Assembly (NCBI GenBank): GCA_902623585.1 | Contig: CACNUO010000001.1 | Location: 72,314-136,313 of the forward strand | Length of the DNA: 64,000 bases | Direction: 5' to 3' | DNA from: an uncultured Alphaproteobacteria bacterium | GTDB taxonomy: Bacteria > Pseudomonadota > Alphaproteobacteria > HIMB59 > GCA-002718135 | Part shown: positions 21,936-42,544 of the stretch, piece after piece | Layout: every line of letters starts with the position of its first letter | How positions within the stretch are numbered: position 1 is the first letter of the stretch | Made by a program: the position numbers and the translations under genes | Notes under the pieces: generated by a model | What the model saw: the letters and a program-made list of their open reading frames with translations, nothing else | What the model was told of the DNA's origin: nothing | Database searches by the model: none

Positions 21936-22762
21936 TGAAGCTAACACTTCTTGGAACCGGATGCCCCTCAGTTGATTATAAAAGGTGTGGTGCTTCAAAC
22001 CTTGTAATAACAAAAAAAACTAAAATTTTAATCGATTGTGGTTCTGGAGTAACGCAAAGATTAAATCAAAGTAAAAACTCTTCAGCTGATATTGACGCTT
22101 TACTACTTACCCATTTACATTCCGATCATGTTATAGATTTGTATCAACTCATCATTTCTTCTTGGCACTCTGATAGAGATTCAGTATGGAAGATATATGG
22201 ACCAAAAGGAACAAAGAAATTTGTTGATAAAATATTTTCAGCCTGGAAAATTGAACGTGAATTAAGAATTTCTTATGAAAAAAGAAAATCAATAAATGCT
22301 CTTAAATATAAAGTTTATGAATTTAAAAAAAATGGCTCAATAAAAATAAATGATATAAAAATTAAATATTTTGAAGTTGATCATAAACCAGTTACATATG
22401 CATATGGTTTTTCATTTTTTAATAATAGTAAGAAATTAACAATTAGTGGAGATACAAGACCGTGTGAGAGTTTAATGCAAAATGCACAGAACTCAGATGT
22501 TTTACTGCATGAAGTTTTTATTGAATATGAAATGAATAAAACGTCAAAACTTAGAACTAAAAAAACATTACATAATGTTAAAGAGTATCACACCTCAAGT
22601 AATCTTGTGGGTAAAGTAGCTAAATTATCAAACTGTAAAAAACTTGTATTAACACATTTTGTTCCAACAAGATTTAATGTTTCAAGATTAAAGAAAATTG
22701 TAAAAAAAGATTTTGGTAAAGATCCTATAATTGGAGAAGATTTATTAACAATCAATATCTAG
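21935..22762 (+). CDS. MBL-fold metallo-hydrolase (RNase Z/BN-like)
   Basis: 275 aa with the HxHxDH motif (THLHSDHV). The start overlaps the rpoD stop (ATAATGA). Confidence 0.75.
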   Translation: MKLTLLGTGCPSVDYKRCGASNLVITKKTKILIDCGSGVTQRLNQSKNSSADIDALLLTHLHSDHVIDLYQLIISSWHSDRDSVWKIYGPKGTKKFVDKIFSAWKIERELRISYEKRKSINALKYKVYEFKKNGSIKINDIKIKYFEVDHKPVTYAYGFSFFNNSKKLTISGDTRPCESLMQNAQNSDVLLHEVFIEYEMNKTSKLRTKKTLHNVKEYHTSSNLVGKVAKLSNCKKLVLTHFVPTRFNVSRLKKIVKKDFGKDPIIGEDLLTINI

Positions 22763-23586
22763 CCAACTTTATTTAAAAATTTTTCAAACTCATCATCTTT
22801 TATTTTAACTATATTCGATGGAGTTGGAAATTTTTTAGTGTTTACGTCTTTAACAAAATTTTTAAGTCCTTCTATTGTATCATTTAATAGCTTCTCATAG
22901 GATTTATTTGTATCCTTAAATACTTTTGCGTGACGAGGCACTCTATCAGTATTAGTGCCTATAACATCTTGAATAAATAAAAACTCAACATCACATTTGG
23001 GACCACTTCCCATAGACAATGTTAATAAATTTACTTTTTTTGTAATAATTTCTGCAACTCTATCTGGAACACATTCTACTTCAAGACCAATTGCACCTGC
23101 TTGATCGTATGCCAAAGCATCTTGATAAACTTTGTAGGCAGAAATAGCATCTTTTCCTACTGCTTTGAAACCACCAGTCCATGTACTTTTATAAGGTATT
23201 AAGCCTATATGACTGACGGCTGGCAATCCTTCATTTCGAAGAGCTTCTATATATTTTGGACTATTACCGCAATAAACTGCATCAGCACCATTATCCCTTG
23301 CAATAAGAGCAGCATCAATTGCTTTATCTGGAGAAGACAATTGACCAAGGCCATAAATCATAAATGTATTTGGTGCTGCATCACGAATATCTTTAATATG
23401 CGCATCCCTAAACCATCTATTTGTTGGCACACCAGTTCTTAATGTATCTTTTTTAAATGAAACAATCTGGATATCTATTCCAGCTTGTTCAGCTGCATAC
23501 GCTTCTAAAGCATTAGTCACATAAAGTTCTGTTAATTTAACTTTTCCTTTTTTGTCAAATAAATCTTTAACTGTAAGTTTAGACAT
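22759..23586 (-). CDS. Divergent PanB-like protein (ketopantoate hydroxymethyltransferase / ICL-PEPM superfamily)
   Basis: 275 aa. The C-terminal two thirds are collinear with PanB (SHIGLIP...GGFKAVGK...AGAIGLEVECVP...SMGSGP...HAKVF). The canonical N-terminal GDSLGM metal-binding motif is not recognisable (reads IVSFKKDTL). Confidence 0.55.
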   Translation of the reverse strand: MSKLTVKDLFDKKGKVKLTELYVTNALEAYAAEQAGIDIQIVSFKKDTLRTGVPTNRWFRDAHIKDIRDAAPNTFMIYGLGQLSSPDKAIDAALIARDNGADAVYCGNSPKYIEALRNEGLPAVSHIGLIPYKSTWTGGFKAVGKDAISAYKVYQDALAYDQAGAIGLEVECVPDRVAEIITKKVNLLTLSMGSGPKCDVEFLFIQDVIGTNTDRVPRHAKVFKDTNKSYEKLLNDTIEGLKNFVKDVNTKKFPTPSNIVKIKDDEFEKFLNKVG

Positions 23587-24947
23587 TAATGATATTTGGG
23601 TAAGTAATTACCGTGAGATTCAATTAACTTATCAACCATAGAATATATTTCATCAATGGACAAATTTGCTCCAGTTAGTGGATCTAGCATCGCTGCGTGA
23701 TAAATATGCTCTTTTTTATTTGTTAATGCAGCTTCAGCAGTCAAAATTTGAACATTTATATTTGTTCTCATTAAAGCTGCTAAATGTTCTGGTAAGCGAC
23801 CAGTTTTTTGAGGTTGATTACCTTTTGAATTAATTAAGCAAGGAACTTCAACACAACAATTTGATGGTAAATTATCAATATATCCATCATTCATCACATT
23901 ACCATTAATTGTTACTTCATTGTTATTTGTTACGGCATCCATTATGTATGATGCATATTCTTTTCCTCTTTTTAGAGGTTGATTATGTATGGGTGTCATA
24001 TCTTTTTCCAAGTCATCCCAAAGCTTGATATTATTTTCACATCTATCAATGTATTCTTCTATGGGAATTTTATATTGATCAATTAAATCTTGTCTATTCT
24101 GCTTTATAAACCATGGAACGTATTCAGCAAAATGTTCGCTAGACTCTGTAACAAAATAACCAAATCGTCTTAAAATTTCGTATCTTACTTTTTCATGCAG
24201 GACTTTATCTGATTCACTATCTTTACCTACACTTCTAGTTGATGTTATTTTATCACTGACAATATCATCAGCTAATTTTTTTAATTTTGGATAAAGATCC
24301 TCTCCACCATTGCCATTCTTTTTTGTAAACTTTTTATAGAAAGCCATGTGATTAATTCCAGCACAGAGATAATCAATATCCTCAATTTTTTCATTTAAAT
24401 CTCTAGCAAGCATTTCTGCAGTTCCTTGTACAGAATGACAAAGTCCTATAGATTTAATTCCAGGGCAAGCATTATTTATTGCTATCATGTTTGAACACAT
24501 TGGGTTTACATATTGTAACCATAAAGAATTTGGACAAAGATCCATTATATCTTTACCAATATCTACTAAAACTGGAATTGTTCTTAGACCTCTCATAATT
24601 CCACCAATACCAAGGGTATCAGCTATTGTCTGTTTTAACCCAAATTGATTTGGAATATCAAAATCGATTACTGTTGATGGTTTGTAACCGCCAACTTGGA
24701 TAGTTGACTGCACAAAATCTGAACCAGCCAAGGCTTCTTTTCTATTAGTGTATGATTTTATATTAGGAGATGCATTTAACTTTTTTGCGATTACATCTAA
24801 TAATTCATGTGATATTTTCAATCTTTTTTCATCAATATCTACAAGTGCAATATCCATTTTTTTAAAATCATCAATGAACATTAAATCTGTAAAAATATTT
24901 TTGGTAAATACTGCGCTACCAGCACCAATGATTGTGAGTTTAGTCAA
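23586..24947 (-). CDS. Glycoside hydrolase family 4, MelA-like NAD+/Mn2+-dependent alpha-galactosidase/alpha-glucosidase
   Basis: 453 aa. It has an N-terminal Rossmann motif IIGAGSAVFTKN and QTIADTLGIGGIMRGLRTIP. GLCHSVQGTAEMLARDLN and CAGINHMAFY are almost identical to E. coli MelA motifs. Confidence 0.85.
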   Translation of the reverse strand: MTKLTIIGAGSAVFTKNIFTDLMFIDDFKKMDIALVDIDEKRLKISHELLDVIAKKLNASPNIKSYTNRKEALAGSDFVQSTIQVGGYKPSTVIDFDIPNQFGLKQTIADTLGIGGIMRGLRTIPVLVDIGKDIMDLCPNSLWLQYVNPMCSNMIAINNACPGIKSIGLCHSVQGTAEMLARDLNEKIEDIDYLCAGINHMAFYKKFTKKNGNGGEDLYPKLKKLADDIVSDKITSTRSVGKDSESDKVLHEKVRYEILRRFGYFVTESSEHFAEYVPWFIKQNRQDLIDQYKIPIEEYIDRCENNIKLWDDLEKDMTPIHNQPLKRGKEYASYIMDAVTNNNEVTINGNVMNDGYIDNLPSNCCVEVPCLINSKGNQPQKTGRLPEHLAALMRTNINVQILTAEAALTNKKEHIYHAAMLDPLTGANLSIDEIYSMVDKLIESHGNYLPKYH

Positions 24948-25722
24948 TTTGATACTCCATAATTGAATTATGATTTGCTACTTTTAACTGGTTATAAGAA
25001 GCATGTCCAATTTCTTTATAAGGATTATTGGATTTAGTATTAAAGCACACTATTAATGTCCTTCTAGAATTTTGTGATTTATTTGCATCAGAAGAGTGCA
25101 ATAGATTTGCATGAAAGAATAATGCATCTCCTGGTTCTGCTTCAATATAAACAGACTCATGTCTTTTTTCTAATTCTCTTATTCTTTCATTATCTGCCGT
25201 TTGTTCAGGTGTGTCTGATCGTTCATGGCTAATTCTTCCAACACGATGAGAACCCTTTAATACTTTAAGGCAACCATTTTCTTTATTTGCTTTATCTAAC
25301 ATTATAAAACATGATGCCATATCTGGATAAAGACAAGCATTGTGATACCAATAACCATAATCTTGATGCCAATCAAATCCACCATCACCTGGATTTTTCC
25401 AAATAATTTTAGAATGATAATGATAAACTTCATCATTTAAGAATATTTCCATTGGTTTGACTATTCTTTCATTAGTAGAGAATTTTCCAAATAAATCTTC
25501 TGAAGGATGATTCCACATTGTCATTGTTAATTTTCCAGTTGAAGTATTAGTCTCTCTTGCACTTTCTTCTTTATCTTTTCTAATGGCTATATATCGATTT
25601 AATTTATTGATTTCTTCATTAGAAAAGAGTTTTTTCTTTAAGACAAAGCCATTTGAGATGAATTCCTTTATGTCACTCATATAAATAAACTGTAATTTCT
25701 TTGATAAATTAAATATTGTCAA
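24940..25722 (-). CDS. Phytanoyl-CoA dioxygenase (PhyH) family Fe(II)/2OG oxygenase, canonical HxD
   Basis: It carries WHQDYGYW (HxD), LDKANKENGCLKVLKGSH and a distal His in FFHANLLHSSDAN. The probable true start is ATG 25680 (MSDIKEF...); the track start 25722 is TTG. It overlaps the GH4 start by 8 nt. Confidence 0.8.
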   Translation of the reverse strand: MTIFNLSKKLQFIYMSDIKEFISNGFVLKKKLFSNEEINKLNRYIAIRKDKEESARETNTSTGKLTMTMWNHPSEDLFGKFSTNERIVKPMEIFLNDEVYHYHSKIIWKNPGDGGFDWHQDYGYWYHNACLYPDMASCFIMLDKANKENGCLKVLKGSHRVGRISHERSDTPEQTADNERIRELEKRHESVYIEAEPGDALFFHANLLHSSDANKSQNSRRTLIVCFNTKSNNPYKEIGHASYNQLKVANHNSIMEYQID

Positions 25723-25752
25723 TAAATATTAGGGAGTATAGGATATATAAAT

Positions 25753-27237
25753 ATGAAAGTTAGTTTTATTGGAGCTGGGAGTATAGGATTTACTCAAACA
25801 TTAGTAAGAGATCTGCTAAAGGTTCCTGAATTTCATGATACAAATTTTTTTTTTCACGATATTTCTGAAAAAAATTTAGATTTTGTTTCAAAACTTATCC
25901 AAAAAGATATTGATGCTAATAATCTTCCTGCAACTATTGAACAATCAACCGATAGAAAAAAAGCATTAGAGGGAGCAAAATATATAATTAATTGTACACG
26001 CATTGGAGGACTAGAAGCATTTGAGCACGATATTAATATTCCTCTTCAATATGGTGTAGATCAGTGTGTAGGGGACACCATTTGCGCTGGAGGAATTCTA
26101 TATGGTCAAAGAAATATTCCCCAAACCTTAAATTTTTGTAAAGATATAAAATCTTATTCGGATTCAAATGCTTTGTTTTTGAATTATTCAAATCCAATGG
26201 CCATGAACACTTGGGCAGCAATATCAGAAGCAAAAGTAAATACAGTTGGGCTATGTCACGGTGTTCAAGGTGGCGCAAAACTAATCTCTAAAGCATTAGG
26301 ATCTGAAAACTCAAAAGATCTTGAATATATGTGTAGCGGAATTAATCATATGACCTGGTACATAGATCTAAAATTCAAAGGAAAAAAAGTATCAAAAGAA
26401 GAACTTATAGATGCATTGGAAAGACATCCAGAAATTTCTAAACAAGAAAAAGTAAGAATTGATATTTTAAAAAGATTTGGTTTATTTTCTACTGAAAGTA
26501 ATGGCCATTTAAGTGAGTATCTTCCATGGTATAGAAAAAGAGTTGAGGATATTCCTAAATGGATAGATTTGTCAAATTGGATACATGGCGAAACGGGAGG
26601 ATATTTAAGAGTTACATCAGAGAAAAGAAATTGGTTTGAAGAAGACTTTGAAAAATTTTTAAGTGAGTCGGGTATCGATTTAAATAATCATAAAAGATCT
26701 TCTGAGCATGGTAGTTATATAATTGAGTCAATTGAAACAAATAGACCTTATCGTGGTCATTTTAATGTAGTTAATAATGGTACTATAACAAATTTACCAG
26801 ATGACTGTGTTATTGAAAGTACTGGAACAGTTGATAAAGATGGAATTAAAATGATTAAAGGTGTTGAGCTTCCAATGGCCTGTGCATCACTCTGTAGAAC
26901 ATCGATAGATGTTCAGAGAATGGCAGTCAAAGCTGCAATAGACGGAGATTTAAATTTATTAAAATTAGCAGTTTTGCAAGATCCATTAGTTAGTGCAGTT
27001 TGTTCACCTGATGAAGTTTGGTCTATGGTAGATGAAATGATTGTAGCTCAATCTAAATGGCTTCCTCAATATCAAAACGAAATTGAACTAGCTCTAGAGA
27101 GAATTAAAAATTCTAATGTAAAAAAGAAAAATTTTAAAGGTGCTGCAAGAATGAAAACTAGATCTCCTGAAGAACTAAAAAATGATGAAGAATCTTCTTT
27201 ACTTGTGGAAGCACAGGCATTCGAATTTGATGCTTAA
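25753..27237 (+). CDS. Glycoside hydrolase family 4 paralogue (AglA/MelA-like) with a ~40-aa charged C-terminal extension
   Basis: 494 aa with FIGAGSIGFTQ, VGDTICAGGILYGQRNIP, GLCHGVQGGAKL and SGINHMTWY. Confidence 0.82.
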   Translation: MKVSFIGAGSIGFTQTLVRDLLKVPEFHDTNFFFHDISEKNLDFVSKLIQKDIDANNLPATIEQSTDRKKALEGAKYIINCTRIGGLEAFEHDINIPLQYGVDQCVGDTICAGGILYGQRNIPQTLNFCKDIKSYSDSNALFLNYSNPMAMNTWAAISEAKVNTVGLCHGVQGGAKLISKALGSENSKDLEYMCSGINHMTWYIDLKFKGKKVSKEELIDALERHPEISKQEKVRIDILKRFGLFSTESNGHLSEYLPWYRKRVEDIPKWIDLSNWIHGETGGYLRVTSEKRNWFEEDFEKFLSESGIDLNNHKRSSEHGSYIIESIETNRPYRGHFNVVNNGTITNLPDDCVIESTGTVDKDGIKMIKGVELPMACASLCRTSIDVQRMAVKAAIDGDLNLLKLAVLQDPLVSAVCSPDEVWSMVDEMIVAQSKWLPQYQNEIELALERIKNSNVKKKNFKGAARMKTRSPEELKNDEESSLLVEAQAFEFDA

Positions 27238-27240
27238 GCA

Positions 27241-28770
27241 ATGAAAGAAATAAAAAATGTCGTAATTTTAGGTGGAGGAACTGCTGGATGGCTAGCTGCA
27301 TATATATTAAGTGACTTTTTTTATTCTAACAAACTTAATACAAATGTTAAAATAATAGAGTCTTCTAAAATACCAACAATTGGTGTTGGAGAGGGGACTA
27401 CCAGCATATTTTATGAATTTTTAAAAAAATATAATTTAGATGAATCTGATTTTTTGAAAGAAACAAAAGCTACATTAAAATTTGGAATAGTACATAAAGA
27501 CTGGAAAGAATTAGGATATACTTATTATGGACCTATAGATGATCCGCAATTAATTGCTCCAAAAAATAAACCAGAAAATTTTGAATATTTAAAAGCATAT
27601 GCTGTCGCTGCTGGAAGACCAGTTTCTGAAATTCATTTGCATACAATGCTTATGCAAAATAAAAAAGTACCTTATACTTTTAAAAATAATAATTTAGAAC
27701 TAATAAGCCCATTTTATTATGCATATCATTTTGATAATTCTCAAGTAGCAAGCTATTTAAATAAAAGATCTAAAAATATTGAGATTATTGATGATATTTA
27801 CACATCTTCAACACAAAATGTAGATGGAACAATTAGATCTCTATGTTTTGAAAGTGGTTTGGAATTGGATGTTGATTTAGTTATTGATTGTAGTGGTTTT
27901 AAAAAATTGATTATTGGAGATGTGTTCAAAACCAAATGGATCTCTTATCAAGATAATCTTCCTGTAAATAGAGCGATGCCATTTTTTTTAGATATAAAAG
28001 AAGAAAACTACATTAATTATACATTAGCCTGGGCCCAAAAGTATGGATGGATGTGGCAAATTCCTACACAAGAAAGAATTGGTGCTGGTTATGTTTATTG
28101 TGATCAATTTATCTCACCTGATCAAGCACAAGAAGAAATAGAAAAAGTTCTTGGACACAAAATTGAACCAAGACGAGACATTAAGTTTAATAGTGGTAGG
28201 TTAGAAAAATATTGGGTTAAAAATTGTTTAGCTATCGGTTTATCATCTGGTTTCCTTGAACCCTTAGAAGCTACTTCTATTCATAGTACTTTGATTCAAA
28301 TCATTTTATTTGCAACTGAATATCTTAAGAAAGAAATGGACTTTAATAATGAAGAATTAATCTCTAATTTTAATAATCGAATTGGACGACAATTTGATGA
28401 TTTCAAAACCTTTTTAAATATGCACTATGTTTCCAAAAGAAGAGATTCAAAATTTTGGCAATACGTTGCAGATGAATGTATAAGCGAAGATACAAAAAAA
28501 TTTATTTCTTTATGGCAAGATGAACTTCCAAGTCTTGATCATTTTGATGATTATCTCTCTGGCCTTCCTCATGTACAATCACAGTTATACTACCCAGTTG
28601 TAGATGGTCTTGGTCTATTAAGTAAGGAATCCGCGAGAGAACAAATGAGCAAATATGATTTACGATCAACATCAAGAAAATATTACAATGATTTTTCTGA
28701 GAAATTTAACGAAATAATCAAGGATTCCCTTACTCACAGTCAATATATTAATCTTTCAGTGAATTCTTAG
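27241..28770 (+). CDS. Flavin-dependent halogenase family protein (tryptophan-halogenase-like)
   Basis: 509 aa with FAD motifs GGGTAGW and GVGEGT, the GWMWQIP (WxWxIP) signature, a Lys in KATLKF that aligns by eye with PrnA K79, and FLEPLEATS that aligns with PrnA E346. Confidence 0.78.
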   Translation: MKEIKNVVILGGGTAGWLAAYILSDFFYSNKLNTNVKIIESSKIPTIGVGEGTTSIFYEFLKKYNLDESDFLKETKATLKFGIVHKDWKELGYTYYGPIDDPQLIAPKNKPENFEYLKAYAVAAGRPVSEIHLHTMLMQNKKVPYTFKNNNLELISPFYYAYHFDNSQVASYLNKRSKNIEIIDDIYTSSTQNVDGTIRSLCFESGLELDVDLVIDCSGFKKLIIGDVFKTKWISYQDNLPVNRAMPFFLDIKEENYINYTLAWAQKYGWMWQIPTQERIGAGYVYCDQFISPDQAQEEIEKVLGHKIEPRRDIKFNSGRLEKYWVKNCLAIGLSSGFLEPLEATSIHSTLIQIILFATEYLKKEMDFNNEELISNFNNRIGRQFDDFKTFLNMHYVSKRRDSKFWQYVADECISEDTKKFISLWQDELPSLDHFDDYLSGLPHVQSQLYYPVVDGLGLLSKESAREQMSKYDLRSTSRKYYNDFSEKFNEIIKDSLTHSQYINLSVNS

Positions 28771-28843
28771 ATTAACTGAATAACATTTATAATTGTTATT
28801 GATTTTGAGTAAAAAAAACATTTTACTTTTAGTAAAATTATTC

Positions 28844-28853
28844 AAAGGGAGGA
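28844..28853 (+). promoter_or_regulatory. Strong Shine-Dalgarno block AAAGGGAGGA, 4 nt upstream of the SBP start
   Basis: The identical 10-mer precedes all three ABC substrate-binding genes in the window. Confidence 0.6.
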
Positions 28854-28857
28854 TAAA

Positions 28858-30885
28858 ATGGGTATTGAAACCAAATTTACTTTCAAGAGTAAAGCAGCAA
28901 GTTTACTTGTAGGTGTTAGCATGGTTGCTATGACTTCTGGTGCTAGTGCTCTTGAAACTCTACCACCTGATAAAAGTATGTCAGGTATAGAAGTTGAATT
29001 AGTTGGAAGAGATGATTTATATTCTTATAAAAGTTGTGATAGTTATAATGAAGCTCCTTTAACTGCAGCATATGTTGAAGCTGGAAAGCTACCACCAGTA
29101 GCTGAGAGACTTCCAAAAACACCAATGATGATGTCAAAAGCTCAAATGGTTGATGGAATTGGTGATTATGGCGGAACATTTCGTCATGTTATTGGAGGAA
29201 GACCTGAAGGTTGGAACTGGATGGCTGGACAACATCAAGGTTGGGGTGGCATTAGCATGCAGTTAATGCAATCATTAACAAGACTTGGTCCACTATGGCA
29301 AGTTAAACCTGAAGAAGCTTTACCTCTTCCAAACCTAGCAACTGACTGGGAGTTTAATAGCGATCGTACTACTTTAACTATGAATTTAGTTGAAGGTGTA
29401 AAATGGTCTGATGGAGATCCATTTGATACTGAAGATATTGATTTTTGGTGGAACGATAATGTTCAAAATGCAAATGTAAACTCGAGGCTTCCAAAGGATG
29501 CTCTTGGTGCAGGAACGACAGTTGATATTTTAGGACCATATTCGTTTAGGTTTAATTTTGACTCTCCAAAAGGTAATGCTGTTCTATCACAGCTTGCGCA
29601 TATGGGAGGTGCTCCTGGGCCTTCTCACATTTTAAAACCACATCACCCAGATTATAATAGTGATGCAACTTACGATACATATACTATGGCTTTACCACCT
29701 GATGAAGTGCCTATAGCAACACTTGGAGCTTATGTTCCAGTTGCTCATAAAATTGACGAACTGGTGGTGATGAAAAGAAATCCTTACTATTGGAAAGTTG
29801 ATGAAGAATGTAATCAACTTCCATATTACCATGAAACGATTTATAAATTAACCACATGGGATGATAGAACTACGCAAGCTCTAGCAGGAACTGGTGATTA
29901 TTCTAATATGGAAAATCCTGGTAACTACGTTGAAGCCTTAAAGCAAAATAAAGATCCTAACTCGCCTGTTAGATCAGTATTTGGTTCTAGATCTTTGACA
30001 TGGAAATTATATGTAAATCTTTCCTCTGAATTTGGAGCTCAAGATGATTATGATAGAGAGTTAAGAAAACTTTTCAGAAACTTGGAGTTTAGAAAAGCAC
30101 TTTCTCACGCAATGGATAGAGACACTATGGGTCAATCTGTTGCGAGAGGTCCTTTCTTCCATCCTCATGCTGGAGGATTTTCTGCAGGATCTCCTTTTCA
30201 TCGCTTTGAGGATTCTATTTATTATGGATACAATGTTGATGGTGCCAATTCAATCTTAGATGGTTTAGGTCTTATTGATAGTGATGGAAACGGTATTAGA
30301 AATTTTCCTAATGGAGGAGAAGATATAGCGTTGGACATCCTTTTCAGTAATGAAAGATCCACTGATATTAAAATTGGGGATAGTATAGTTCCAATGTTTG
30401 AAGCGGTAGGATTAAAACCTATATTAAAACCTTCAAACGATACGGCAGCAATTACTGATGCGGGAAATTGGAATTTATATATTAATAGACACAATTGGCT
30501 TGTTGTAACGAAAAACATGGCTGATGAGTTACCAATAACTCCTGAAAATCCTGTTCAACATAAAAGTAATGAAGGTGATTTACTTCCATTTGAAAAAACT
30601 TTAGCTAATTTAGGTAACGACATTCTTGCTACTAATGATTTGAAAGTTGTTGCAGAAAAAGCTTACGAAATTCAAAAGGTAAGTACTGAAAATGTATATT
30701 CAATAGGATTAATACAAACACCTGCTGCACTTTTAATTAACAAAAGGATAAAGAATAATCATCCAGGCACTCCAGTATATATGTACGAATGGGGTGAAGA
30801 TGCAATTTTTAGGGAAAGACTTTATACCCCTAAAGCTGATCAAATAGATGAGTTCTTACCTGGTGTTTTGGCTGAATATAAATAA
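28858..30885 (+). CDS. ABC transporter substrate-binding protein, family 5 (Opp/Dpp/AgpA-type), large 675-aa form with signal peptide
   Basis: It has a signal peptide (...MTSGASA/LE), SBP_bac_5-like length and order, and sits next to DppB/C/DF-type genes. Confidence 0.85.
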   Translation: MGIETKFTFKSKAASLLVGVSMVAMTSGASALETLPPDKSMSGIEVELVGRDDLYSYKSCDSYNEAPLTAAYVEAGKLPPVAERLPKTPMMMSKAQMVDGIGDYGGTFRHVIGGRPEGWNWMAGQHQGWGGISMQLMQSLTRLGPLWQVKPEEALPLPNLATDWEFNSDRTTLTMNLVEGVKWSDGDPFDTEDIDFWWNDNVQNANVNSRLPKDALGAGTTVDILGPYSFRFNFDSPKGNAVLSQLAHMGGAPGPSHILKPHHPDYNSDATYDTYTMALPPDEVPIATLGAYVPVAHKIDELVVMKRNPYYWKVDEECNQLPYYHETIYKLTTWDDRTTQALAGTGDYSNMENPGNYVEALKQNKDPNSPVRSVFGSRSLTWKLYVNLSSEFGAQDDYDRELRKLFRNLEFRKALSHAMDRDTMGQSVARGPFFHPHAGGFSAGSPFHRFEDSIYYGYNVDGANSILDGLGLIDSDGNGIRNFPNGGEDIALDILFSNERSTDIKIGDSIVPMFEAVGLKPILKPSNDTAAITDAGNWNLYINRHNWLVVTKNMADELPITPENPVQHKSNEGDLLPFEKTLANLGNDILATNDLKVVAEKAYEIQKVSTENVYSIGLIQTPAALLINKRIKNNHPGTPVYMYEWGEDAIFRERLYTPKADQIDEFLPGVLAEYK

Positions 30886-30900
30886 ATAAAATCAATACAA

Positions 30901-30927
30901 TGGCCCATTTTTCAATGGGCCAGTTTT
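30901..30927 (+). terminator. GC-cored hairpin after the SBP gene (TGGCCCATT-TTTC-AATGGGCCA, then GTTTT): intra-operon attenuator or mRNA stabiliser
   Basis: A perfect 9-bp stem 16 nt after the SBP stop and 8 nt before the permease start. Confidence 0.5.
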
Positions 30928-30934
30928 ACAATTT

Positions 30935-31960
30935 ATGGCTTTTTTATTTTTTTTATTAAAACGAATTATTGCAACTATTCCTCTGTTAATTGCTATAACT
31001 CTTGTTGCATTTCTTCTTGTTCAGGCAATGCCCGGTGATTATGCAACTCAATGGAAAGCTCAAACAATGTCAATGGGAGGTGTCAGTGAAGAGGATGCTG
31101 AGGCTCAAGCTGAAGCTTTAAGAGTTAGATTAGGTTTAGATAAACCACTTTACATTCAATATTTTAATTGGGTAAAAAATATCACTCTTTATTGGGATTT
31201 AGGAGAATCATTTATTCAACAGAGATCAGTTAATGAAGCAATAGGAGATAGAGTTCCACGAACATTATTATTAGCTTTTATATGTTACTTTAATGCCGTA
31301 ACTATTGGAATATTAGCTGGCGTCTATGCTGCTACACATCAATATCAACTAGGCGATCAACTTGCTACGGTCTTTACATTTTTAGCTTTTTCAATTCCTA
31401 AGTTTATTGTAGCGTTAGTTATATTATATTTCTGGGCTATTAAATTTCATTCACCATATTATGGTTCAATATTTTCACAAGAATATGTTTTACAAGAGGG
31501 ATGGTGGAGTCTTGCAAAAACATGGGATTTCTTGCTCCATACCTGGCCAATTATTGCAGTTGGAAGTTTTGTAGGAGCAGGATATCAAATGAGAATGATG
31601 CGAGGTAATTTATTAGATGTTTTAAAAATGCAATTTATAGAAACCGCAAGAGCTAAAGGGTTAAAGGAAAGTAAGATTATATGGAAACATGGTGTTCCAA
31701 ACGCTTTACATCCAATAATCATGAATCAAGGCAGAAGCGTTGGCTATTTAATTGAAGGAGAGATTGAAGTAGCAATTGTATTAGCAATACCAACTATTGG
31801 ACCATTGATTTTATCATCCGTTACCACAATGGATATATATGTTGCATCTTCAATATTTTTGATTTTGTCTCTCGTATTAGTAATTGGTAATTTTATTGCA
31901 GATATAATATTGGCATTACTTGATCCTCGTATTAGAGATATGTCCGGAGGCGAGGCTTAA
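30935..31960 (+). CDS. ABC transporter permease (DppB/OppB-type)
   Basis: 341 aa, multi-TM, with an EAA-like loop FIETARAKGLKESKIIWKHGVPNAL. Confidence 0.87.
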   Translation: MAFLFFLLKRIIATIPLLIAITLVAFLLVQAMPGDYATQWKAQTMSMGGVSEEDAEAQAEALRVRLGLDKPLYIQYFNWVKNITLYWDLGESFIQQRSVNEAIGDRVPRTLLLAFICYFNAVTIGILAGVYAATHQYQLGDQLATVFTFLAFSIPKFIVALVILYFWAIKFHSPYYGSIFSQEYVLQEGWWSLAKTWDFLLHTWPIIAVGSFVGAGYQMRMMRGNLLDVLKMQFIETARAKGLKESKIIWKHGVPNALHPIIMNQGRSVGYLIEGEIEVAIVLAIPTIGPLILSSVTTMDIYVASSIFLILSLVLVIGNFIADIILALLDPRIRDMSGGEA

Positions 31961-33087
31961 TGACTTCCAAAAATAAAAATGGATCTCTTAATGCTGAGGC
32001 ACAAAAATTTTCAAATATAAATTCCCATTGGCACCTTTCATATTTAAGATTAAAAAAAAATCGTTATGGAATGTTTGGTTTATATGGTGTGTTGTTTATT
32101 TTTTTTATTGCTATTTTTGCAGAATTTTTATCACCTCATAGTTATAAGAAGACTGTTCAGGATGAATTATATAATCCACCACAATTAATTCGATTTATAG
32201 ATTCTGAAGGTAATTTTCATTTAAGACCATTTGTATTTAAACTTATTGAAGAAATGGATATGGAAACTTTTGAATTCTCATACTCTAATTCAGATGAAAT
32301 GATACCTATTTATTTTTTTATTCAGGGTGATGAATATTCTATTTTTGGTTTTAAGACTAAGCTTCGGTTATTTGGCAATAACGAAGGTAATATTCACTTA
32401 TTGGGTACTGATAATATGGGTAGAGATATTCTTTCAAGAATGTTTGTCGGAACACAAATTACTATGCTCTTTGCTTTACTTGCAGTTTCAGCATCATTGG
32501 TTATTGGATTAATGGTAGGTATAAGCTCAGGATATTTTGGAGGAACGTATGATTTAATAGCGCAAAGAGTGACAGAATTTGCATTATCATTTCCATCCTA
32601 TCCATTATATTTTGCGTTGGTAGCTCTCTTGCCAAAAAGAGCCGATGAGACGACAGTGTTTGTACTATTTGCCGGAATAATTGTTTTATTAAATTGGGCA
32701 TCAATTGCTAGAGAGATTAGAGGTAAAACTTTTTTAGTAAGAAACCTAGAATTTGTTAGAGCAGCAAGAGCTTTAGGTGCATCTAGATCAAGAATTATGA
32801 TTCAACATATATTTCCAAATACTTTATCTCACGTAATTGTCTGGACATCATTTTGTATTCCTCTAATTATTTTAGTTGAAACTTTTTTAAGTTTCATCGG
32901 AGTAGGTGTTCAGCATCCTATGGTTTCATGGGGAGTAATGTTAAATCAGGCTTTAGATATACAGAGCTTTGCATATGCTCCCTGGATGATTGCTCCAGTT
33001 GGAATGATTATATTAACTGTTTTAGCTTTTAATGCTTTTGGAGATGGAATAAGGGACGCGGTAGATCCATATGCAGTCACAAAATAA
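31960..33087 (+). CDS. ABC transporter permease (DppC/OppC-type)
   Basis: 375 aa with EAA-like loop FVRAARALGASRSRIMIQHIFPN. The start overlaps the upstream stop. Confidence 0.87.
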   Translation: MTSKNKNGSLNAEAQKFSNINSHWHLSYLRLKKNRYGMFGLYGVLFIFFIAIFAEFLSPHSYKKTVQDELYNPPQLIRFIDSEGNFHLRPFVFKLIEEMDMETFEFSYSNSDEMIPIYFFIQGDEYSIFGFKTKLRLFGNNEGNIHLLGTDNMGRDILSRMFVGTQITMLFALLAVSASLVIGLMVGISSGYFGGTYDLIAQRVTEFALSFPSYPLYFALVALLPKRADETTVFVLFAGIIVLLNWASIAREIRGKTFLVRNLEFVRAARALGASRSRIMIQHIFPNTLSHVIVWTSFCIPLIILVETFLSFIGVGVQHPMVSWGVMLNQALDIQSFAYAPWMIAPVGMIILTVLAFNAFGDGIRDAVDPYAVTK

Positions 33088-34699
33088 TCAGAAATTATTA
33101 GATCTGAAAAATGCTGAAGTAAAATTCAGTGTAGAGGGAGGAATTGTCAATGCAGTAAATGATATATCTTTTGACATAATGAAAGGTGAAACCCTTGCTG
33201 TTGTTGGTGAGTCAGGTTCAGGAAAATCAGTCACTGCTAGAACTATAATGAAAATGCTACCTAAGAATTCATCAATTGGGTCAAATTTCAAGATTGAGTT
33301 TAAAGATGTAGATATTACAAATTTAACTCAGGAACAGATGAGACAAATCAGAGGTGATACTATTAGTATGATATTTCAAGAGCCTCTCACAAGTTTAAAT
33401 CCTCTCCATAGGATTGGAAGTCAATTGATAGAGGTATTACGAGAACACAATAAAATTGATAAAATTACTGCAAAAGAAAGAGCCCTTGAATTATTAAAAG
33501 AAGTACAAATTCCTCAGCCAGAAGAAAGATTAAATCAATATCCGCATCAGTTATCAGGGGGTCAAAGACAAAGAGTTATGATTGCAATGGCTATCGCAAA
33601 TAGACCTGATTTATTAATAGCTGATGAACCAACAACTGCTTTAGATGTTACAATACAATCACAAATATTAAAATTACTAAAGGATCTACAAAAAAAATAT
33701 GGAATGGCAATTATGCTTATTACACATGATTTAACTGTTGTAAGAAAAACTAGTGATAGAATATGTGTAATGCGATATGGAAAAATAGTTGAGAGAGGTA
33801 TTACAGAAGATGTATTTAATAATCCTCAACATGAATATACAAAACATTTAATTAATTCTGAACCTAGTGGTGAACCTGATCCTTATGATGCAAGCAATGA
33901 AGATTATATAATACAAGGACAGCAATGTACTGTTAAATTTACATTGAAAAAAGGGAATTTTTTTAATCAAAAGAAAACAGAATTAATTGCAGTAAATAAT
34001 GTTGATATTAAAGCGCGTTATGGTGAAACCATAGGCATTGTTGGAGAAAGTGGATCAGGTAAAAGCACACTTGGAATGTCACTTATAAAACTACAAGATA
34101 TAAATTCTGGAAAAATATTTTTTAAAGATGAAGAAATACAAGATTATAATACTAAGCAATTAAAAGATTTAAGAGAACATATGCAGATTGTTTTTCAAGA
34201 TCCTTTTTCCTCTTTAAATCCTAGACATACAATAAAACAAATAATAGGCGAGGGATTAGAAATAAATAGAAAAGATTTATCAAAAGAAGAAAAAGATGAT
34301 TTAATAAAAAAAACACTAAATGAAGTAAATCTTGATGAAGCTGTCCTTCATCGTTTCCCTCATGAATTTTCAGGTGGCCAAAGGCAAAGAATTGCGATTG
34401 CTAGAGCTATAATTTTAAATCCAGAATTTATTTTACTTGATGAACCAACTTCTGCATTGGATTTATCTATTCAGGCACAAATTATTGATTTGTTGAGATC
34501 TTTAAGAAGAAATCACAATTTGTCATATATTTTCATAAGTCATAATTTGAAAGTAATTCGATCGCTGTGTCATTATACTTTGGTTATGAAAGATGGAAAA
34601 GTAATTGAAGAAGGAATTACTAAAAATGTACTCGATAATCCAGTAAACGACTATACCAAACAATTAGTTCAATCAGCTTTTGAGGTTATAGGTGAATAG
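33071..34699 (+). CDS. Fused double ABC ATPase (DppD-DppF type)
   Basis: 542 aa with two complete cassettes: Walker A GESGSGKS twice, signature LSGGQRQR / FSGGQRQR, and Walker B LLIADEPT / ILLDEPT. Confidence 0.92.
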   Translation: MQSQNNQKLLDLKNAEVKFSVEGGIVNAVNDISFDIMKGETLAVVGESGSGKSVTARTIMKMLPKNSSIGSNFKIEFKDVDITNLTQEQMRQIRGDTISMIFQEPLTSLNPLHRIGSQLIEVLREHNKIDKITAKERALELLKEVQIPQPEERLNQYPHQLSGGQRQRVMIAMAIANRPDLLIADEPTTALDVTIQSQILKLLKDLQKKYGMAIMLITHDLTVVRKTSDRICVMRYGKIVERGITEDVFNNPQHEYTKHLINSEPSGEPDPYDASNEDYIIQGQQCTVKFTLKKGNFFNQKKTELIAVNNVDIKARYGETIGIVGESGSGKSTLGMSLIKLQDINSGKIFFKDEEIQDYNTKQLKDLREHMQIVFQDPFSSLNPRHTIKQIIGEGLEINRKDLSKEEKDDLIKKTLNEVNLDEAVLHRFPHEFSGGQRQRIAIARAIILNPEFILLDEPTSALDLSIQAQIIDLLRSLRRNHNLSYIFISHNLKVIRSLCHYTLVMKDGKVIEEGITKNVLDNPVNDYTKQLVQSAFEVIGE

Positions 34700-34892
34700 T
34701 AAAAACTATTTTGTAACAAGTGATGACGGAAGAAAATATAAAATCCCAGATATAAATAATTTTTTTAAGCATCTTACAGATTTTCATACTGAAAATGGTC
34801 ATGGAAATAATTCGTTACATGAGGAAAATGGCTTCTATTTTACTGTAACTGAAGATTTTTACAATGCAGTTAAAAAAATGTTTATTTCCTAA
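34692..34892 (+). CDS. Hypothetical 66-aa protein, GTG start overlapping the ATPase stop by 8 nt
   Basis: ORF only, with no recognisable family. Its position suggests translational coupling to the ABC operon. Confidence 0.3.
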   Translation: MNSKNYFVTSDDGRKYKIPDINNFFKHLTDFHTENGHGNNSLHEENGFYFTVTEDFYNAVKKMFIS

Positions 34893-34940: not shown

Positions 34941-35017
34941 GGGCTCTTAGCTCAGTTGGTTAGAGCGCCCCGCTCATAACGGGGTGGTCCGGGGTTCAAG
35001 TCCCTGAGGGCCCACCA
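34941..35017 (+). tRNA. tRNA with anticodon CAT (34975-34977): elongator Met or lysidine-modified Ile2; CCA encoded
   Basis: Hand-folded: acceptor GGGCTCT/AGGGCCC (one G-U), D arm GCTC-AGTTGGTTA-GAGC, anticodon arm CCCCG-CTCATAA-CGGGG, T arm CGGGG-TTCAAGT-CCCTG. Met and Ile2 cannot be separated by eye. Confidence 0.88.
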
Positions 35018-35028: not shown

Positions 35029-36195
35029 TTATTCAAAATCTTTTTGAAAATTTGGAATTAATATTTTGCGACCACCATCCATTGCGGATTCATGTGCACA
35101 AATTCCTGCTGCCGTCCAATTAGCAGTAATTGATCCATTTGGCCATGGTTGCCGATTTTCATAAATACTTATAACAAATTCATTAACAAGATGTGGGTGA
35201 GATCCATGATGACCACCACCTTGAATGAAACTAAGATGCTCTTTATCTTTATTAAATATTTCTTCTTTAGTAAAACGAGCTATTTCTTTAGGTAGTAAAT
35301 CTTGGCGATCTGGTACATTGATATGCTCAAAAGTAATTTTATTACCTCTGCCCAAGCTTGGAATATGTGAAGATTTTTCATCTGGGTTCATTTCAAATAC
35401 TACAGGATTATCATTTTCAAGTTGCTGCCATTCAAACGTTCCCTTTTCTCCGTATATATTAAAACTTTCAGTATAATCTCTTGCCGTATGAAATAAACTT
35501 CGAGTTACTTCAGCTGCAAGAGGTGTATCATATTCTAATTCAAAAATTGCCGTTTCAACTGGGTAAGGATTATTGTATTGATTTATTAGTTCTTTACGCA
35601 TAACTCCTGAACCAAAACAATGTACAGATTTGGCATGTGTATTGGCTAAAGCAAGAACAGGAGAAATTGCGTGTGTAGCATAATGCATAGGTGGTAATCC
35701 CATCCAATAAGAAGGCCATTTTTCCATATCTTGATAATGAGCTCCTCTAAGCAATTGAATTCTACCAATTTTATCATTTTTTAACATTTCTTGTGCGTAT
35801 ATGAAATGACGTGTGTAAACTGCAGTTTCCATTCCCATATAAACTTTATTACTTTTTTTTTGGGCTTTTAATATTTCTAATAGATCTTTAATACTTGTCG
35901 CCATTGGAACAGTACAAGCACAATGTTTACCAGATTGAAAGACATCAATTGTTTGTTTAGCATGTAGAGGTATTGGTGTTACTAAATGTACTGCATCAAT
36001 ACTTTTATCATCAAGTATTTCTTCAAAGCTTCTAGCTTTATTTGCCAATTCAAATCGATTTCCAACCTCTTCTAAAACTTGAATATTTGTATCAAAAATT
36101 GTTAATTTTCTAACTAATGGATGATTAAGATAGATCGGAATAAAATCAGCTCCAAAACCTAAGCCTATGAGAGCTATACTTAAATTTTTTTCCAT
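35029..36195 (-). CDS. Gfo/Idh/MocA family NAD(P)-dependent oxidoreductase
   Basis: 388 aa with N-terminal Rossmann IALIGLGFGADF and a C-terminal alpha/beta domain typical of sugar/cyclitol dehydrogenases. Confidence 0.8.
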   Translation of the reverse strand: MEKNLSIALIGLGFGADFIPIYLNHPLVRKLTIFDTNIQVLEEVGNRFELANKARSFEEILDDKSIDAVHLVTPIPLHAKQTIDVFQSGKHCACTVPMATSIKDLLEILKAQKKSNKVYMGMETAVYTRHFIYAQEMLKNDKIGRIQLLRGAHYQDMEKWPSYWMGLPPMHYATHAISPVLALANTHAKSVHCFGSGVMRKELINQYNNPYPVETAIFELEYDTPLAAEVTRSLFHTARDYTESFNIYGEKGTFEWQQLENDNPVVFEMNPDEKSSHIPSLGRGNKITFEHINVPDRQDLLPKEIARFTKEEIFNKDKEHLSFIQGGGHHGSHPHLVNEFVISIYENRQPWPNGSITANWTAAGICAHESAMDGGRKILIPNFQKDFE

Positions 36196-36206: not shown

Positions 36207-37325
36207 TTATATTCTTTTAAAATTATTAAAATTAAATAATCCTATAATTAAAATATAGATAACAAAAAAAACTAAAAAGAAATAATTTATATTTATATTA
36301 ATAATATTTCCAATAAGATTAGGTCCAAGAAAACTCCCGATATTCTCACTTATATAGTGTCCTGCTATTCCAAAAACTATAACTCCTCCTTCAAGTTTTT
36401 TTCCAACAATATTAAATGTAATTAAAAAAACTGTCCCAATTGTATAATAGTAAAAAGCTACACAAATTACATAGATATAAAAATCACTAATTGAATAAAG
36501 TACTAATAAGTTAATTAAGTTAATGAAGCAAAATGAATTAAAAATTATAGTTTTATTATAATTGTCAACTAGCTTACCCATAAATGGATAAAAAAATAAT
36601 GCTATTGCTCCTGCTAAAAAATTAATTCTTCCAATTTGCTTATCACTATAATTTTCTTCTAATAAGTAAGATGGAAATAAAGAACTGAATCCAGCATCAC
36701 ATACACCAAATAATATTACACAAAAAAGTAAATATTTAATTTTACTTAAAACGTTTTTAGATAATCTAAGACTAAGGTTTTCAATGGCAATTTTACTAAT
36801 AGATAAACGAAATAAATAGATTGGAATAAAATGCATAAGAAAAAATAAAACAGCTAAATAATATGTAAAATTATTTATACCATTAATTGCAATAAATAGA
36901 CTTCCAGTAATTGCGCCTAATCCAGCAGATGACCAAAATAAAGATATGTAGAAACCAGATGATTTTTTAAATTTAGAGCTGATGTATGATTCAAGCGTTA
37001 ATGAATTAATTGTGCTTGTTATACCCATAACAAATTGCATTAAAGCCACAAGGAAAGTATTTTGATCAAATAAAAAAATTAATGAGAATGTAAATTGAAT
37101 CAATGAACCATACAAAATTGTTGAAATCAAATTTAATTTTTTTCTTATTAAATTATGTAATAATGCTCCTAAAATAACTCCAATACCCCATAATGATAAC
37201 GATAGACCTATGTAACGTTCTTCATAACCTTTTATTTTTAAATCAATAGCAAAACATGTTGCTAAATAACTATGTGACAATGCATATAAAAAAATTAGGC
37301 AAGAATATTTTAAAATTTCTTTCAC
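36207..37325 (-). CDS. MFS-type transporter
   Basis: 372 aa, about 11-12 hydrophobic helices. Co-directional with the downstream oxidoreductase, 11 nt away. Confidence 0.65.
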   Translation of the reverse strand: MKEILKYSCLIFLYALSHSYLATCFAIDLKIKGYEERYIGLSLSLWGIGVILGALLHNLIRKKLNLISTILYGSLIQFTFSLIFLFDQNTFLVALMQFVMGITSTINSLTLESYISSKFKKSSGFYISLFWSSAGLGAITGSLFIAINGINNFTYYLAVLFFLMHFIPIYLFRLSISKIAIENLSLRLSKNVLSKIKYLLFCVILFGVCDAGFSSLFPSYLLEENYSDKQIGRINFLAGAIALFFYPFMGKLVDNYNKTIIFNSFCFINLINLLVLYSISDFYIYVICVAFYYYTIGTVFLITFNIVGKKLEGGVIVFGIAGHYISENIGSFLGPNLIGNIINININYFFLVFFVIYILIIGLFNFNNFKRI

Positions 37326-38434: not shown

Positions 38435-38479
38435 CTTTTTATTATTGATAAAAATTATTTTTTAATCCAAAATATAAAT

Positions 38480-39307: not shown

Positions 39308-39386
39308 AAAAACAAGGTTATTTACTAGTTAAATACATTTTTTTTATCTTGATTTTTCGATCAATTTAACTTTTAAAAGATATATT

Positions 39387-39396
39387 AAAGGGAGGA
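39387..39396 (+). promoter_or_regulatory. Strong Shine-Dalgarno block AAAGGGAGGA, 4 nt upstream of the SBP start
   Basis: Same 10-mer as at 28844 and 45656. Confidence 0.6.
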
Positions 39397-39400
39397 ATAG

Positions 39401-40654: not shown

Positions 40655-40667
40655 ACGATAATTTTTT

Positions 40668-40693: not shown

Positions 40694-40716
40694 AAAAATC
40701 AAATCAAAATAATAAT

Positions 40717-42543: not shown

Positions 42544-42544
42544 T

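Follow-up and report, generated by a model that had tools for sequence, protein, structure and literature searches.

Introduction

The closest described counterparts of the locus treated here are the alpha-galactoside uptake systems of rhizobia and agrobacteria: on pSymB of Sinorhizobium meliloti the genes agpT-melA-agp are needed for the use of melibiose and raffinose (PMC4254191), and in Agrobacterium fabrum raffinose-family sugars are taken up by MelB and its ATP-binding cassette (ABC) transporter (PMC10100860). We report on a locus of this kind in a 64,000-nucleotide stretch from an uncultured alphaproteobacterium (GenBank assembly GCA_902623585.1, contig CACNUO010000001.1, positions 72,314 to 136,313 of the forward strand; hereafter the window, with coordinates counted from its first letter), where two genes for family-4 glycosidases (GH4a and GH4b) and an ABC importer stand together with a gene of the flavin-dependent halogenase family, here called Hal.

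Among the relatives of Hal, BrvH and Xcc4156 brominate indole weakly, and their native substrates are stated by the authors to be unknown (PMC5945002, PMC7754283). Halogenase-family genes at carbohydrate-uptake loci have been noted since 2010 without having received an explanation so far; the TonB-associated neighbourhoods of halogenase and 2-oxoglutarate-dependent dioxygenase (2OG-dioxygenase) genes found at that time in Proteobacteria were read as biosynthetic (Iyer et al., 2010; PMC2938197). In our literature search we found no paper linking the tryptophan-halogenase family with GH4 enzymes, with alpha-galactosidase or alpha-galactoside operons or with polysaccharide utilization; nor did we find a described pathway with the combination of genes present here, in agreement with an earlier note on this DNA that had been made from the sequence alone. 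Pelagibacterales-type genomes, to which the window belongs, are usually regarded as poor in glycoside hydrolases. The AEGEAN-169 paper gives raffinose/melibiose ABC transporters as "not found in SAR11", and its text does not treat the family-5/GH4 system studied here.

Results

Co-occurrence of Hal with GH4 and the ABC importer

The importer, glycosidase and halogenase-family genes are arranged in the window as follows.

23586..24947, minus strand: GH4a, alpha-galactosidase type of family-4 glycosidase, 453-457 aa (both Pfam GH4 domains and PRK15076)
25753..27237, plus strand: GH4b, MelA-type family-4 alpha-galactosidase, 494 aa (PRK15076)
27241..28770, plus strand: Hal, flavin-dependent-halogenase-family protein (Pfam PF04820, 353 bits)
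28858..30885, plus strand: periplasmic alpha-galactoside-binding protein of the AgpA/MelB type, family 5, 675 aa (SBP_bac_5; match to 6EPY)
30935..31960, plus strand: ABC permease, DppB/OppB type (Pfam BPD_transp_1 and its N-terminal domain)
31960..33087, plus strand: ABC permease, DppC/OppC type (Pfam OppC_N and BPD_transp_1)
33071..34699, plus strand: fused double ATP-binding protein (two ABC_tran domains; YejF-like, 642 bits)

The new element of this locus is the halogenase-family gene, which is a fixed and conserved member of one alphaproteobacterial agp/mel lineage across three orders. Homologues were sought in one genome per species, with an alignment of Hal and its relatives as query, and 80 loci with a clear break in identity were obtained; 15 window proteins were moreover compared by tblastn with 85 loci (labels such as L001 or L006 denote stretches carrying homologues of window genes). 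A GH4a-type gene is present in every locus with a Hal at least 40% identical and enough flanking DNA; the family-5 ABC genes are found in nearly all of these loci and GH4b in most, whereas GH4 or family-5 ABC genes accompany family members of at most 36% identity in 0/54 loci, so that 25/25 loci of Hal orthologues stand against none of the distant ones (Fisher's exact test, p = 4e-21), an association that exceeds chance. The linked loci span Pelagibacterales-type genomes, Hyphomicrobiales and Rhodobacterales, with Devosia, Kaistia, Bauldia, Aestuariivirga, Tabrizicola, Histidinibacterium, Marivivens, Rhodobacter and other Paracoccaceae among the hosts. The halogenase-family gene that the earlier note had seen wired into the unit is thus conserved far beyond the window genome, and the Hal, GH4 and ABC genes are linked in all 25 loci; the remainder of the neighbourhood that the note had joined to them, namely the genes for a PhyH-family oxygenase (PhyH1) and a PanB-like protein, is restricted to Pelagibacterales-type genomes.

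The commonest gene order is binding protein, permease, permease, ATPase, GH4a, Hal, GH4b, and the position of Hal varies: it starts 3 nt after GH4b in the window, follows the ATPase gene in L001 and lies between the GH4 genes elsewhere. GH4a, Hal and GH4b overlap by 4 nt on a plasmid of Sulfitobacter mediterraneus; this was the only record with a Hal orthologue among the annotated plasmids searched, and none was found on rhizobial megaplasmids. Within or beside Hal modules in other genomes occur a GH36 melibiase gene (between the ATPase and GH4a genes), 2-keto-3-deoxygalactonokinase (DgoK), GH2, GH32 and AraC-type regulators, the last in at least ten other Hal-linked loci. These neighbours fit ordinary alpha-galactosides and galactose; for the oxidatively tailored heteroside that the earlier note had envisaged as substrate, the evidence speaks neither in favour nor against.

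The distant family members adjoin TonB-dependent receptors, a GH67 enzyme, a porphyranase and LacI/IclR regulators, in agreement with the neighbourhoods of Iyer et al. (2010; PMC2938197). In one such locus, L065 of Paraglaciecola aquimarina, the gene for a DUF6445 protein (14998-15696) stands among a tandem array of five halogenase-family genes together with those for a TonB receptor and a LacI regulator; this protein may be the dioxygenase-like partner to which that study refers.

Fold, motifs and selection of Hal

Hal matches solved tryptophan halogenases with E values of 1e-64 to 1e-40. Its AlphaFold (AF2) model (pLDDT 82.5) superposes on Thal, PyrH, PrnA, RebH, BorH and Xcc4156 at TM-scores of 0.80-0.85 and 23-29% identity, and all the top matches of the model among PDB structures are tryptophan halogenases. 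In a family alignment of 127 members taken from the loci (29 GH4-linked and 98 others), the FAD motif GxGxxG, which reads GGGTAGW at residues 11-17 of Hal, is invariant in 29/29 linked members, as are W270, W272, I274 and P275 of the WxWxIP motif (GWMWQIP, residues 269-275), a motif that keeps substrates away from the flavin. Both motifs are likewise invariant in the 98 others. Invariant in the 29 linked members, and conserved in 97-98 of the 98 others, are also K80 and E343, which align with the catalytic Lys (K79 of PrnA and RebH) and Glu (E346 of PrnA).

The segment following K80 distinguishes the GH4-linked clade, with G97-P-I99-D100-D101 in 29/29 members as opposed to H-P-F-G in 96/98 of the others, and because of this replacement the name tryptophan halogenase is unsuitable for Hal. 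His and Phe in H-P-F presumably correspond to His101 and Phe103 of PrnA, which sandwich the indole ring; if they do hold indole in this way, the exchange of H-P-F for G-P-I-D-D suggests that the clade lost indole binding, gained two acidic residues and may act on a polar ligand. The ratio of non-synonymous to synonymous polymorphism (pN/pS) of Hal, 0.05-0.06, indicates strong purifying selection.

Orthology of the uptake and hydrolysis core with agp/mel

Both glycosidases match PF02056 and PF11975 over their full length and score above the curated cut-off of 486 of the PRK15076 alpha-galactosidase subfamily (GH4a 595 bits, GH4b 553 bits), and residues 24-659 of the binding protein match the solved Agrobacterium structure 6EPY ("periplasmic alpha-galactoside-binding protein") with an E value of 1.3e-167. 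A plasmid of Ensifer canadensis carries, in order, genes for an AraC-type regulator, a GH4 (490 aa), a binding protein (694 aa), two permeases, a fused ATPase and a second GH4 (457 aa). Identity to this locus amounts to 59% for GH4b (with the 490-aa GH4, in the melA position), 43% for the binding protein, 45% and 43% for the permeases, 54% for the fused ATPase and 48% for GH4a (with the 457-aa GH4 that ends the locus); GH4a is also 47% identical to the Sulfitobacter GH4 encoded directly upstream of Hal. The Ensifer agp stretch itself matches a single place on S. meliloti pSymB, that of agpT-melA-agp, at 84% DNA identity. By virtue of the 6EPY match, the Ensifer identities of 43-59% and the pSymB location, the core for uptake and hydrolysis, including both GH4 paralogues, is on sequence grounds an orthologue of the described agp/mel system, rather than merely resembling it as the earlier note had it; the same note's designation of a candidate "undescribed modified-glycoside utilisation system" was therefore overstated.

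Layout of the locus in the window

The window has a G+C content of about 30%; across the cargo region it is about 99% identical to the single-cell genomes AG-891-E17 and AG-913-M07, and NCBI names its close homologues Pelagibacteraceae. The further features of the locus and its surroundings are the following.

22759..23586, minus strand: PanB-fold protein, 275 aa (Pfam PF02548, full-length match)
24940..25680, minus strand (open reading frame open to a TTG at 25722): PhyH1, Fe(II)/2-oxoglutarate dioxygenase (Pfam PhyH, 114 bits)
25681..25752, no strand: divergent intergenic region of 72 nt between the PhyH1-GH4a-PanB-like operon and the operon running from GH4b to the ATPase (sequence reading)
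30901..30922, no strand: palindromic hairpin (terminator-like scan)
34692..34892, plus strand: 66-aa open reading frame overlapping the end of the ATPase gene (no family match)
34941..35017, plus strand: tRNA-Met(CAT) (Rfam, 68.6 bits, and ARAGORN)
35029..36195, minus strand: GFO/IDH/MocA NAD-dependent sugar oxidoreductase (Pfam)
36207..37325, minus strand: MFS transporter (Pfam MFS_1, synteny and identity profile)
38480..39307, plus strand: PhyH2, HygX-like Fe/2OG oxygenase (conserved metal motif, HygX match)

The nine open reading frames (ORFs) listed by the earlier note between 22759 and 34892 were recovered at the same coordinates, with the 8-nt overlap of PhyH1 and GH4a (24940-24947) and the contact of GH4a with the PanB-like gene, which amounts to a 1-nt overlap at 23586. 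Pfam and NCBIfam searches bear out every domain call made in it, the 66-aa ORF alone being without a match. Since the orthologues of PhyH1 measure 242-246 aa, its start is most likely the ATG at 25680, whence the divergent gap of 72 nt, in line with the 72 bp or less given before. No regulator is encoded inside 22759-34892, as had been noted, and the same searches detected neither an AgpT-like AraC activator nor any other regulator between 22.7 and 37.4 kb. A scan for sigma-70 patterns returned 81 matches vs 83 expected from shuffled sequence and is uninformative in such AT-rich DNA.

A perfect, GC-rich hairpin (TGGCCCATT...AATGGGCCA), whose 9-bp stem contains 5 GC pairs, separates the binding-protein gene from that of the first permease. 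Hairpins of this kind commonly adjust how much binding protein is made relative to permease, and this one may do the same.

The 66-aa ORF, which the earlier note had given as coupled, is unsupported as a gene: outside the window only L006 and L022, the nearest two genomes, have it, and the differences among them, 1-2 synonymous and 0 non-synonymous, have no statistical power. It bears no similarity to Hal, by which an origin as the remnant of a relocated halogenase gene was ruled out.

A variable island beside tRNA-Met

All contigs with close homologues of PhyH1 or the PanB-like protein represent one chromosomal site, flanked on one side by carAB-yqeY-dnaG-rpoD-MBL and on the other by tRNA-Met, the MFS gene, a fructose-bisphosphate aldolase gene (FBA) and a sugar ABC system. 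The genes at 22759-34892 are the cargo between the MBL-fold gene and tRNA-Met(CAT); this tRNA gene, which marks the island edge and was missing from the earlier note, adjoins the cargo in each of the seven loci extending that far, which cover the configurations open to checking. In the left flank, rpoD (19776-21935) is broken into two ORFs by one in-frame TAA at 20988-20990 (GTG AAA AGA TAA GAT) and is intact in relatives (718-743 aa); the stop could be genuine, a nonsense codon, or could stem from faulty sequencing or amplification of a single-cell genome.

The cargo is nested. L091 carries PhyH1 alone and L095/L096 a HygX-like PhyH2-type gene, PhyH1 and GH4a, while the larger cargo of L092-L094 comprises PhyH2-type, PhyH1 and GH4a genes together with a fatty-acid-desaturase-family gene, the PanB-like gene, GH4b and the ABC genes. 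The full variant exists with Hal after the ATPase gene in L001 and L007 (L088-L090 have the same gene order and end before the Hal position) and with Hal after GH4b in the window, L006 and L022. The FA_desaturase-family gene is placed between PhyH1 and GH4a, in L092 at 7742-8734 and likewise in L093 and L094.

The island is a mosaic shaped by recombination, since a tract of high identity contrasts with divergent flanks and the pattern is reversed with another relative: nucleotide identity with L022 and L006 amounts to 73-92% in the left flank, rises to 95-99% between about 22.8 and 37.4 kb and drops to 87-88% beginning with FBA, whereas L001 is 67-84% identical in the island and 97-98% from FBA onward. 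Synonymous divergence is 0.03-0.23 inside the tract vs 0.41-0.44 in the flanks, and the pN/pS values of all cargo genes lie between 0.01 and 0.17. The binding protein and permeases of the window (28858-33087) are closer to those of some Rhodobacterales (51-56%; L015, L017, L026) than to those of the other Pelagibacterales variant (42-50%; L001, L007), and its Hal and GH4b are closest to that same variant (64-66%), which suggests that the transporter block may have been replaced.

Beyond the tRNA, the GFO/IDH/MocA gene (35029-36195) occurs only in the island variant of the window, inside the tract shared with L022 and L006, and gives weak NCBIfam matches to inositol, levoglucosan and glycoside 3-dehydrogenases. 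The MFS gene (36207-37325), with which the high-identity tract ends, is found beside the tRNA in all configurations. We also considered that MFS-GFO1-PhyH1-GH4a-PanB-like had once been a single minus-strand operon, later split by a plus-strand insertion; the tRNA-Met gene, which intervenes in every configuration, ruled this out.

PhyH1 and the PanB-fold protein

PhyH1 has the facial triad H119-x-D121...H209 (in the context W-H119-Q-D121) together with R220/R221, invariant among its orthologues, and its best solved relatives are 7DT0/7DZZ, GriE (5NCH) and EctD. It was found only at the Pelagibacterales-type site, where it is the sole cargo gene in L091 and is accompanied by GH4a in L095/L096, without importer, GH4b or halogenase gene; PhyH1 is therefore independent of the importer, the GH4 enzymes and Hal. 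Homologues labelled Flavobacteriaceae or Gammaproteobacteria in metagenome-assembled genomes (MAGs) had raised the possibility of a cross-phylum enzyme, which was dismissed when the single contig of this sort that was inspected, labelled Flavobacteriaceae, proved to have Pelagibacterales-type synteny. This contig (L095; GCA_018700355.1, JABITG010000047.1, 7.6 kb) carries a substrate-binding-protein gene (SBP1), FBA, MFS, tRNA, PhyH, PhyH1 and GH4a in that order; it is probably misbinned, so that the taxon labels on PhyH1 homologues are not to be trusted.

The PanB-fold protein matches PF02548 with 131 bits, and reaches 106-115 bits with the NCBIfam panB models vs cut-offs of 207-272. Aligned to 1M3U, 3VAV and 1OY0 it shows D45->F, S46->K, D84->G, K112->Y and E114->G, with H136 and E181 retained; Asp45, Asp84, Glu114 and Lys112 (Escherichia coli numbering) are Mg2+-ligand or substrate-binding positions of PanB. 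To judge from these residues the protein is not a canonical ketopantoate hydroxymethyltransferase, its metal ligands are lost, and it should not be called PanB. The divergence that the earlier note had attributed to it is thus borne out by the residue losses, and the gene is variable cargo, not core. It is confined to those Pelagibacterales-type islands in which GH4b and the ABC genes are present as well, and its pN/pS of 0.07 indicates purifying selection. Its conservation (91-97%) had raised the alternative of a core housekeeping gene flanking the island, which its absence from the same site in L091 and L096 rules out.

By tblastn the PhyH1 and PanB-like genes are both absent from all of the about 20 non-Pelagibacterales versions of the module; they are lineage-specific accessories outside the conserved module.

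PhyH2 and the downstream sugar genes

PhyH2 lies outside the island in the window, but its subfamily is found inside the operon in L026 (6841-7668) and adjoins the module in L007 (11533-12363), L017 and L092-L096 (6152-6988 in L092, 5855-6685 in L095). It has an invariant H123-x-G125...(D/E)213-x3-H217...R228, and its best solved relative is HygX (E 8e-12, C-terminal half only), an enzyme with an H-x-G...E-x3-H motif and a relocated carboxylate that acts on sugar units (2026 review, PMC13374393). The invariant H-x-G, where PhyH1 has H-x-D, had made a Fe/2OG halogenase conceivable (such enzymes have H-x-G/A and lack a carboxylate bound to the iron), and the (D/E)-x3-H conserved as in HygX ruled this out; profile-profile alignment of PhyH1 and PhyH2 is ambiguous at this motif. 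Judged by its motif, PhyH2 is a HygX-like oxygenase and not a halogenase.

Further downstream, a sugar island at 37370-51698 encodes a class II fructose-bisphosphate aldolase, two CUT1-type ABC systems (one with a 608-aa fused permease), a LacI regulator, three GFO/IDH/MocA oxidoreductases, an aldo-keto reductase and an AP_endonuc_2 (xylose-isomerase-like) TIM barrel. This gene set is reminiscent of oxidative glycoside-cleavage pathways.

Discussion

We consider it probable that the locus is composite, made of an agp/mel core, a dedicated halogenase-family enzyme and Pelagibacterales accessory cargo. The AgpA/MelB-like protein would bind alpha-galactosides such as melibiose, raffinose, galactinol or galactosylglycerol, the two permeases and the fused ATPase would import them, and the two paralogous NAD+/Mn2+-dependent GH4 alpha-galactosidases would release galactose. 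In one alphaproteobacterial lineage Hal has become a fixed member of the operon with the full machinery for hypohalous acid kept (FAD site, WxWxIP, Lys80 and Glu343). Our best inference is that Hal may carry out chemistry dependent on FADH2, O2 and halide on a polar ligand that enters or arises via the alpha-galactoside route, a glycoside, its aglycone or a GH4-derived product being the candidates and not tryptophan. In Pelagibacterales-type genomes the module is placed as cargo between the MBL-fold gene and tRNA-Met(CAT), where it has been joined by PhyH1 and the PanB-fold gene and, in island relatives, also by HygX-like oxygenases and the desaturase. The orthology with agp/mel, the linkage, the conserved motifs, the island structure and the purifying selection are established by the sequences; the actual sugar, together with the substrate and the reaction of Hal, is what we infer.

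Several points weigh against a halogenating Hal that serves alpha-galactoside use. No flavin reductase was found encoded in the island by Pfam and NCBIfam searches, we know of no precedent for a catabolic role of halogenation, and several of the Hal-linked genomes stem from fresh water, a habitat poor in halide. The polar-ligand reading depends on a presumed equivalence of H-P-F with the indole sandwich of PrnA. The rhizobial agp/mel system works without a halogenase-family gene, and Hal-linked GH4a, GH4b and binding proteins are no closer to the window proteins than the Hal-free Ensifer ones, so that there is no sign of a change in partner specificity where Hal is present. The imported sugar could also differ from melibiose and raffinose. 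That the GH4-linked clade represents a flavin-dependent halogenase directed at a glycoside or a glycoside pathway in catabolism, for example in a cryptic halogenation step, is a tentative and, on balance, unlikely proposal.

A low probability also attaches to the single pathway of the earlier note, in which all nine genes would serve one modified glycoside and PhyH1, Hal and the PanB-like protein would act in sequence on one imported substrate. The two tightly packed divergent operons with their overlapping codons speak for it, as do the position of all the genes in one island with a shared recent recombination tract, the confinement of the PanB-like gene to islands with GH4b and the ABC genes, and the recurrence of PhyH-family oxygenases of three subfamilies beside Hal (L003, L007, L017, L026). 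These oxygenases belong, however, to unrelated subfamilies, the non-Pelagibacterales modules lack both PhyH1 and the PanB-like gene, and PhyH1 is the sole cargo gene in L091 and stands with GH4a, but with no importer, GH4b or Hal, in L095/L096; a single pathway of nine genes is not supported. If Hal is considered by itself, it might have been recruited as a non-halogenating flavin monooxygenase or oxidase acting on a sugar or a GH4 intermediate (e.g., 3-keto or enone). A pocket remodelled to polar residues with two invariant Asp, the low-halide fresh water in which some hosts live and a surrounding genome rich in sugar-oxidising GFO/IDH/MocA enzymes would suit such a role, but a plain monooxygenase would not need the halogenation-specific Lys80, Glu343 and WxWxIP, invariant in 29/29 members, and we hold this to be distinctly unlikely.

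We give little credence to Hal being a functionally unrelated passenger of the alpha-galactoside operon: although the rhizobial operon does without it and its position within the operon varies, a passenger is hard to reconcile with a linkage of 25/25 vs 0/54 loci over three orders, with start and stop codons overlapping on both sides in Sulfitobacter, and with strong purifying selection and an invariant pocket motif specific to the clade. Peptide-directed tryptophan halogenases exist, GH4a is the one partner found in all linked loci and usually lies directly upstream, and the N-terminus of Hal weakly matches the LodB maturase model; from these facts Hal could be pictured as a maturase modifying an aromatic residue of GH4a, as LodB matures LodA. 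The LodB match is nevertheless limited to the FAD-binding N-terminus, the GH4a of the window is as similar to its Hal-linked Sulfitobacter counterpart (47%) as to the Hal-free one of Ensifer (48%), and the loss of the aromatic-binding H-P-F speaks against an aromatic target, so that such a function seems very unlikely. Scarcely credible, finally, is a cluster producing a halogenated secondary metabolite or siderophore-like compound, even though biosynthetic roles were predicted for tryptophan-halogenase and 2OG-dioxygenase genes by Iyer et al. (PMC2938197): no non-ribosomal peptide synthetase, polyketide synthase, carrier protein, amino-acid ligase or exporter was detected with Pfam and NCBIfam, the binding-protein-dependent importer is orthologous to a sugar importer, and the neighbours are glycosidases and galactose-catabolic genes.

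Alpha-galactoside use appears from these genomes as a flexible, recombining trait, located in Pelagibacterales-type genomes at a tRNA-flanked island. Were Hal to halogenate a sugar-linked compound, known halogenase chemistry would be extended, Hal would be the first halogenase of its class with a carbohydrate-linked native substrate, and halogen cycling would come to involve very abundant ocean bacteria, with Pelagibacterales-type and roseobacter members possibly adding to the formation of oceanic organohalogens; it would also offer a first handle on the halogenase-family genes that accompany glycan-uptake loci across Proteobacteria. The GH4-linked clade is the simplest test bed so far for such genes, with a cytoplasmic enzyme, a small operon and orthology to a genetically and structurally characterised system. 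Cultivable hosts of Hal are available in Sulfitobacter mediterraneus, Devosia, Tabrizicola and Marivivens, and the Rhizobiaceae provide natural Hal-free controls.

Comparison with known systems

The rhizobial and agrobacterial agp/mel loci, represented by S. meliloti agpT-melA-agpABCD with its second GH4 and by the A. fabrum mel operon with MelB (6EPY), share with the window, gene for gene at 43-59% identity, the alpha-galactoside-binding protein (family 5, 675-695 aa), the pair of Dpp/Opp-type permeases, the fused double ATPase and both GH4 enzymes, the MelA-type one of about 490 aa and the other of about 455 aa. They have no halogenase-family gene, whereas the window carries one, and the window further differs in its two divergent operons, in the added Pelagibacterales-specific PhyH1 and PanB-fold genes and in the lack of a regulator in the island, while AraC-type regulators are found in most non-Pelagibacterales Hal-linked loci, as in rhizobia.

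With PrnA, RebH, PyrH, Thal, BrvH and Xcc4156, Hal has in common the fold, GxGxxG, WxWxIP and the catalytic Lys and Glu, and with BrvH and Xcc4156 also a proteobacterial source without a known halogenated product. It departs from the known flavin-dependent halogenases in its identity of only 23-35%, in having G-P-I-D-D for H-P-F and in belonging to a cytoplasmic sugar-catabolic ABC operon instead of a biosynthetic cluster. The TonB carbohydrate loci of Gammaproteobacteria, Caulobacterales and Sphingomonadales resemble the window in placing a halogenase-family gene at glycan uptake, often with Fe/2OG dioxygenase-like genes, but they rely on outer-membrane receptors, often have 2-5 tandem halogenase copies, keep H-P-F-G and never include GH4 or family-5 ABC genes.

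As for the accessory genes, HygX and the EvdO/AviO orthosomycin oxygenases have the H-x-G...(D/E)-x3-H motif with a relocated carboxylate in common with the PhyH2-type proteins, whose context is catabolic and not antibiotic biosynthesis. The window PanB-fold protein resembles PanB in its full-length match to the fold family and in the equivalents of His136 and Glu181, and differs from it in scoring about half the equivalog cut-offs and in being encoded by island cargo rather than by a core biosynthetic gene.

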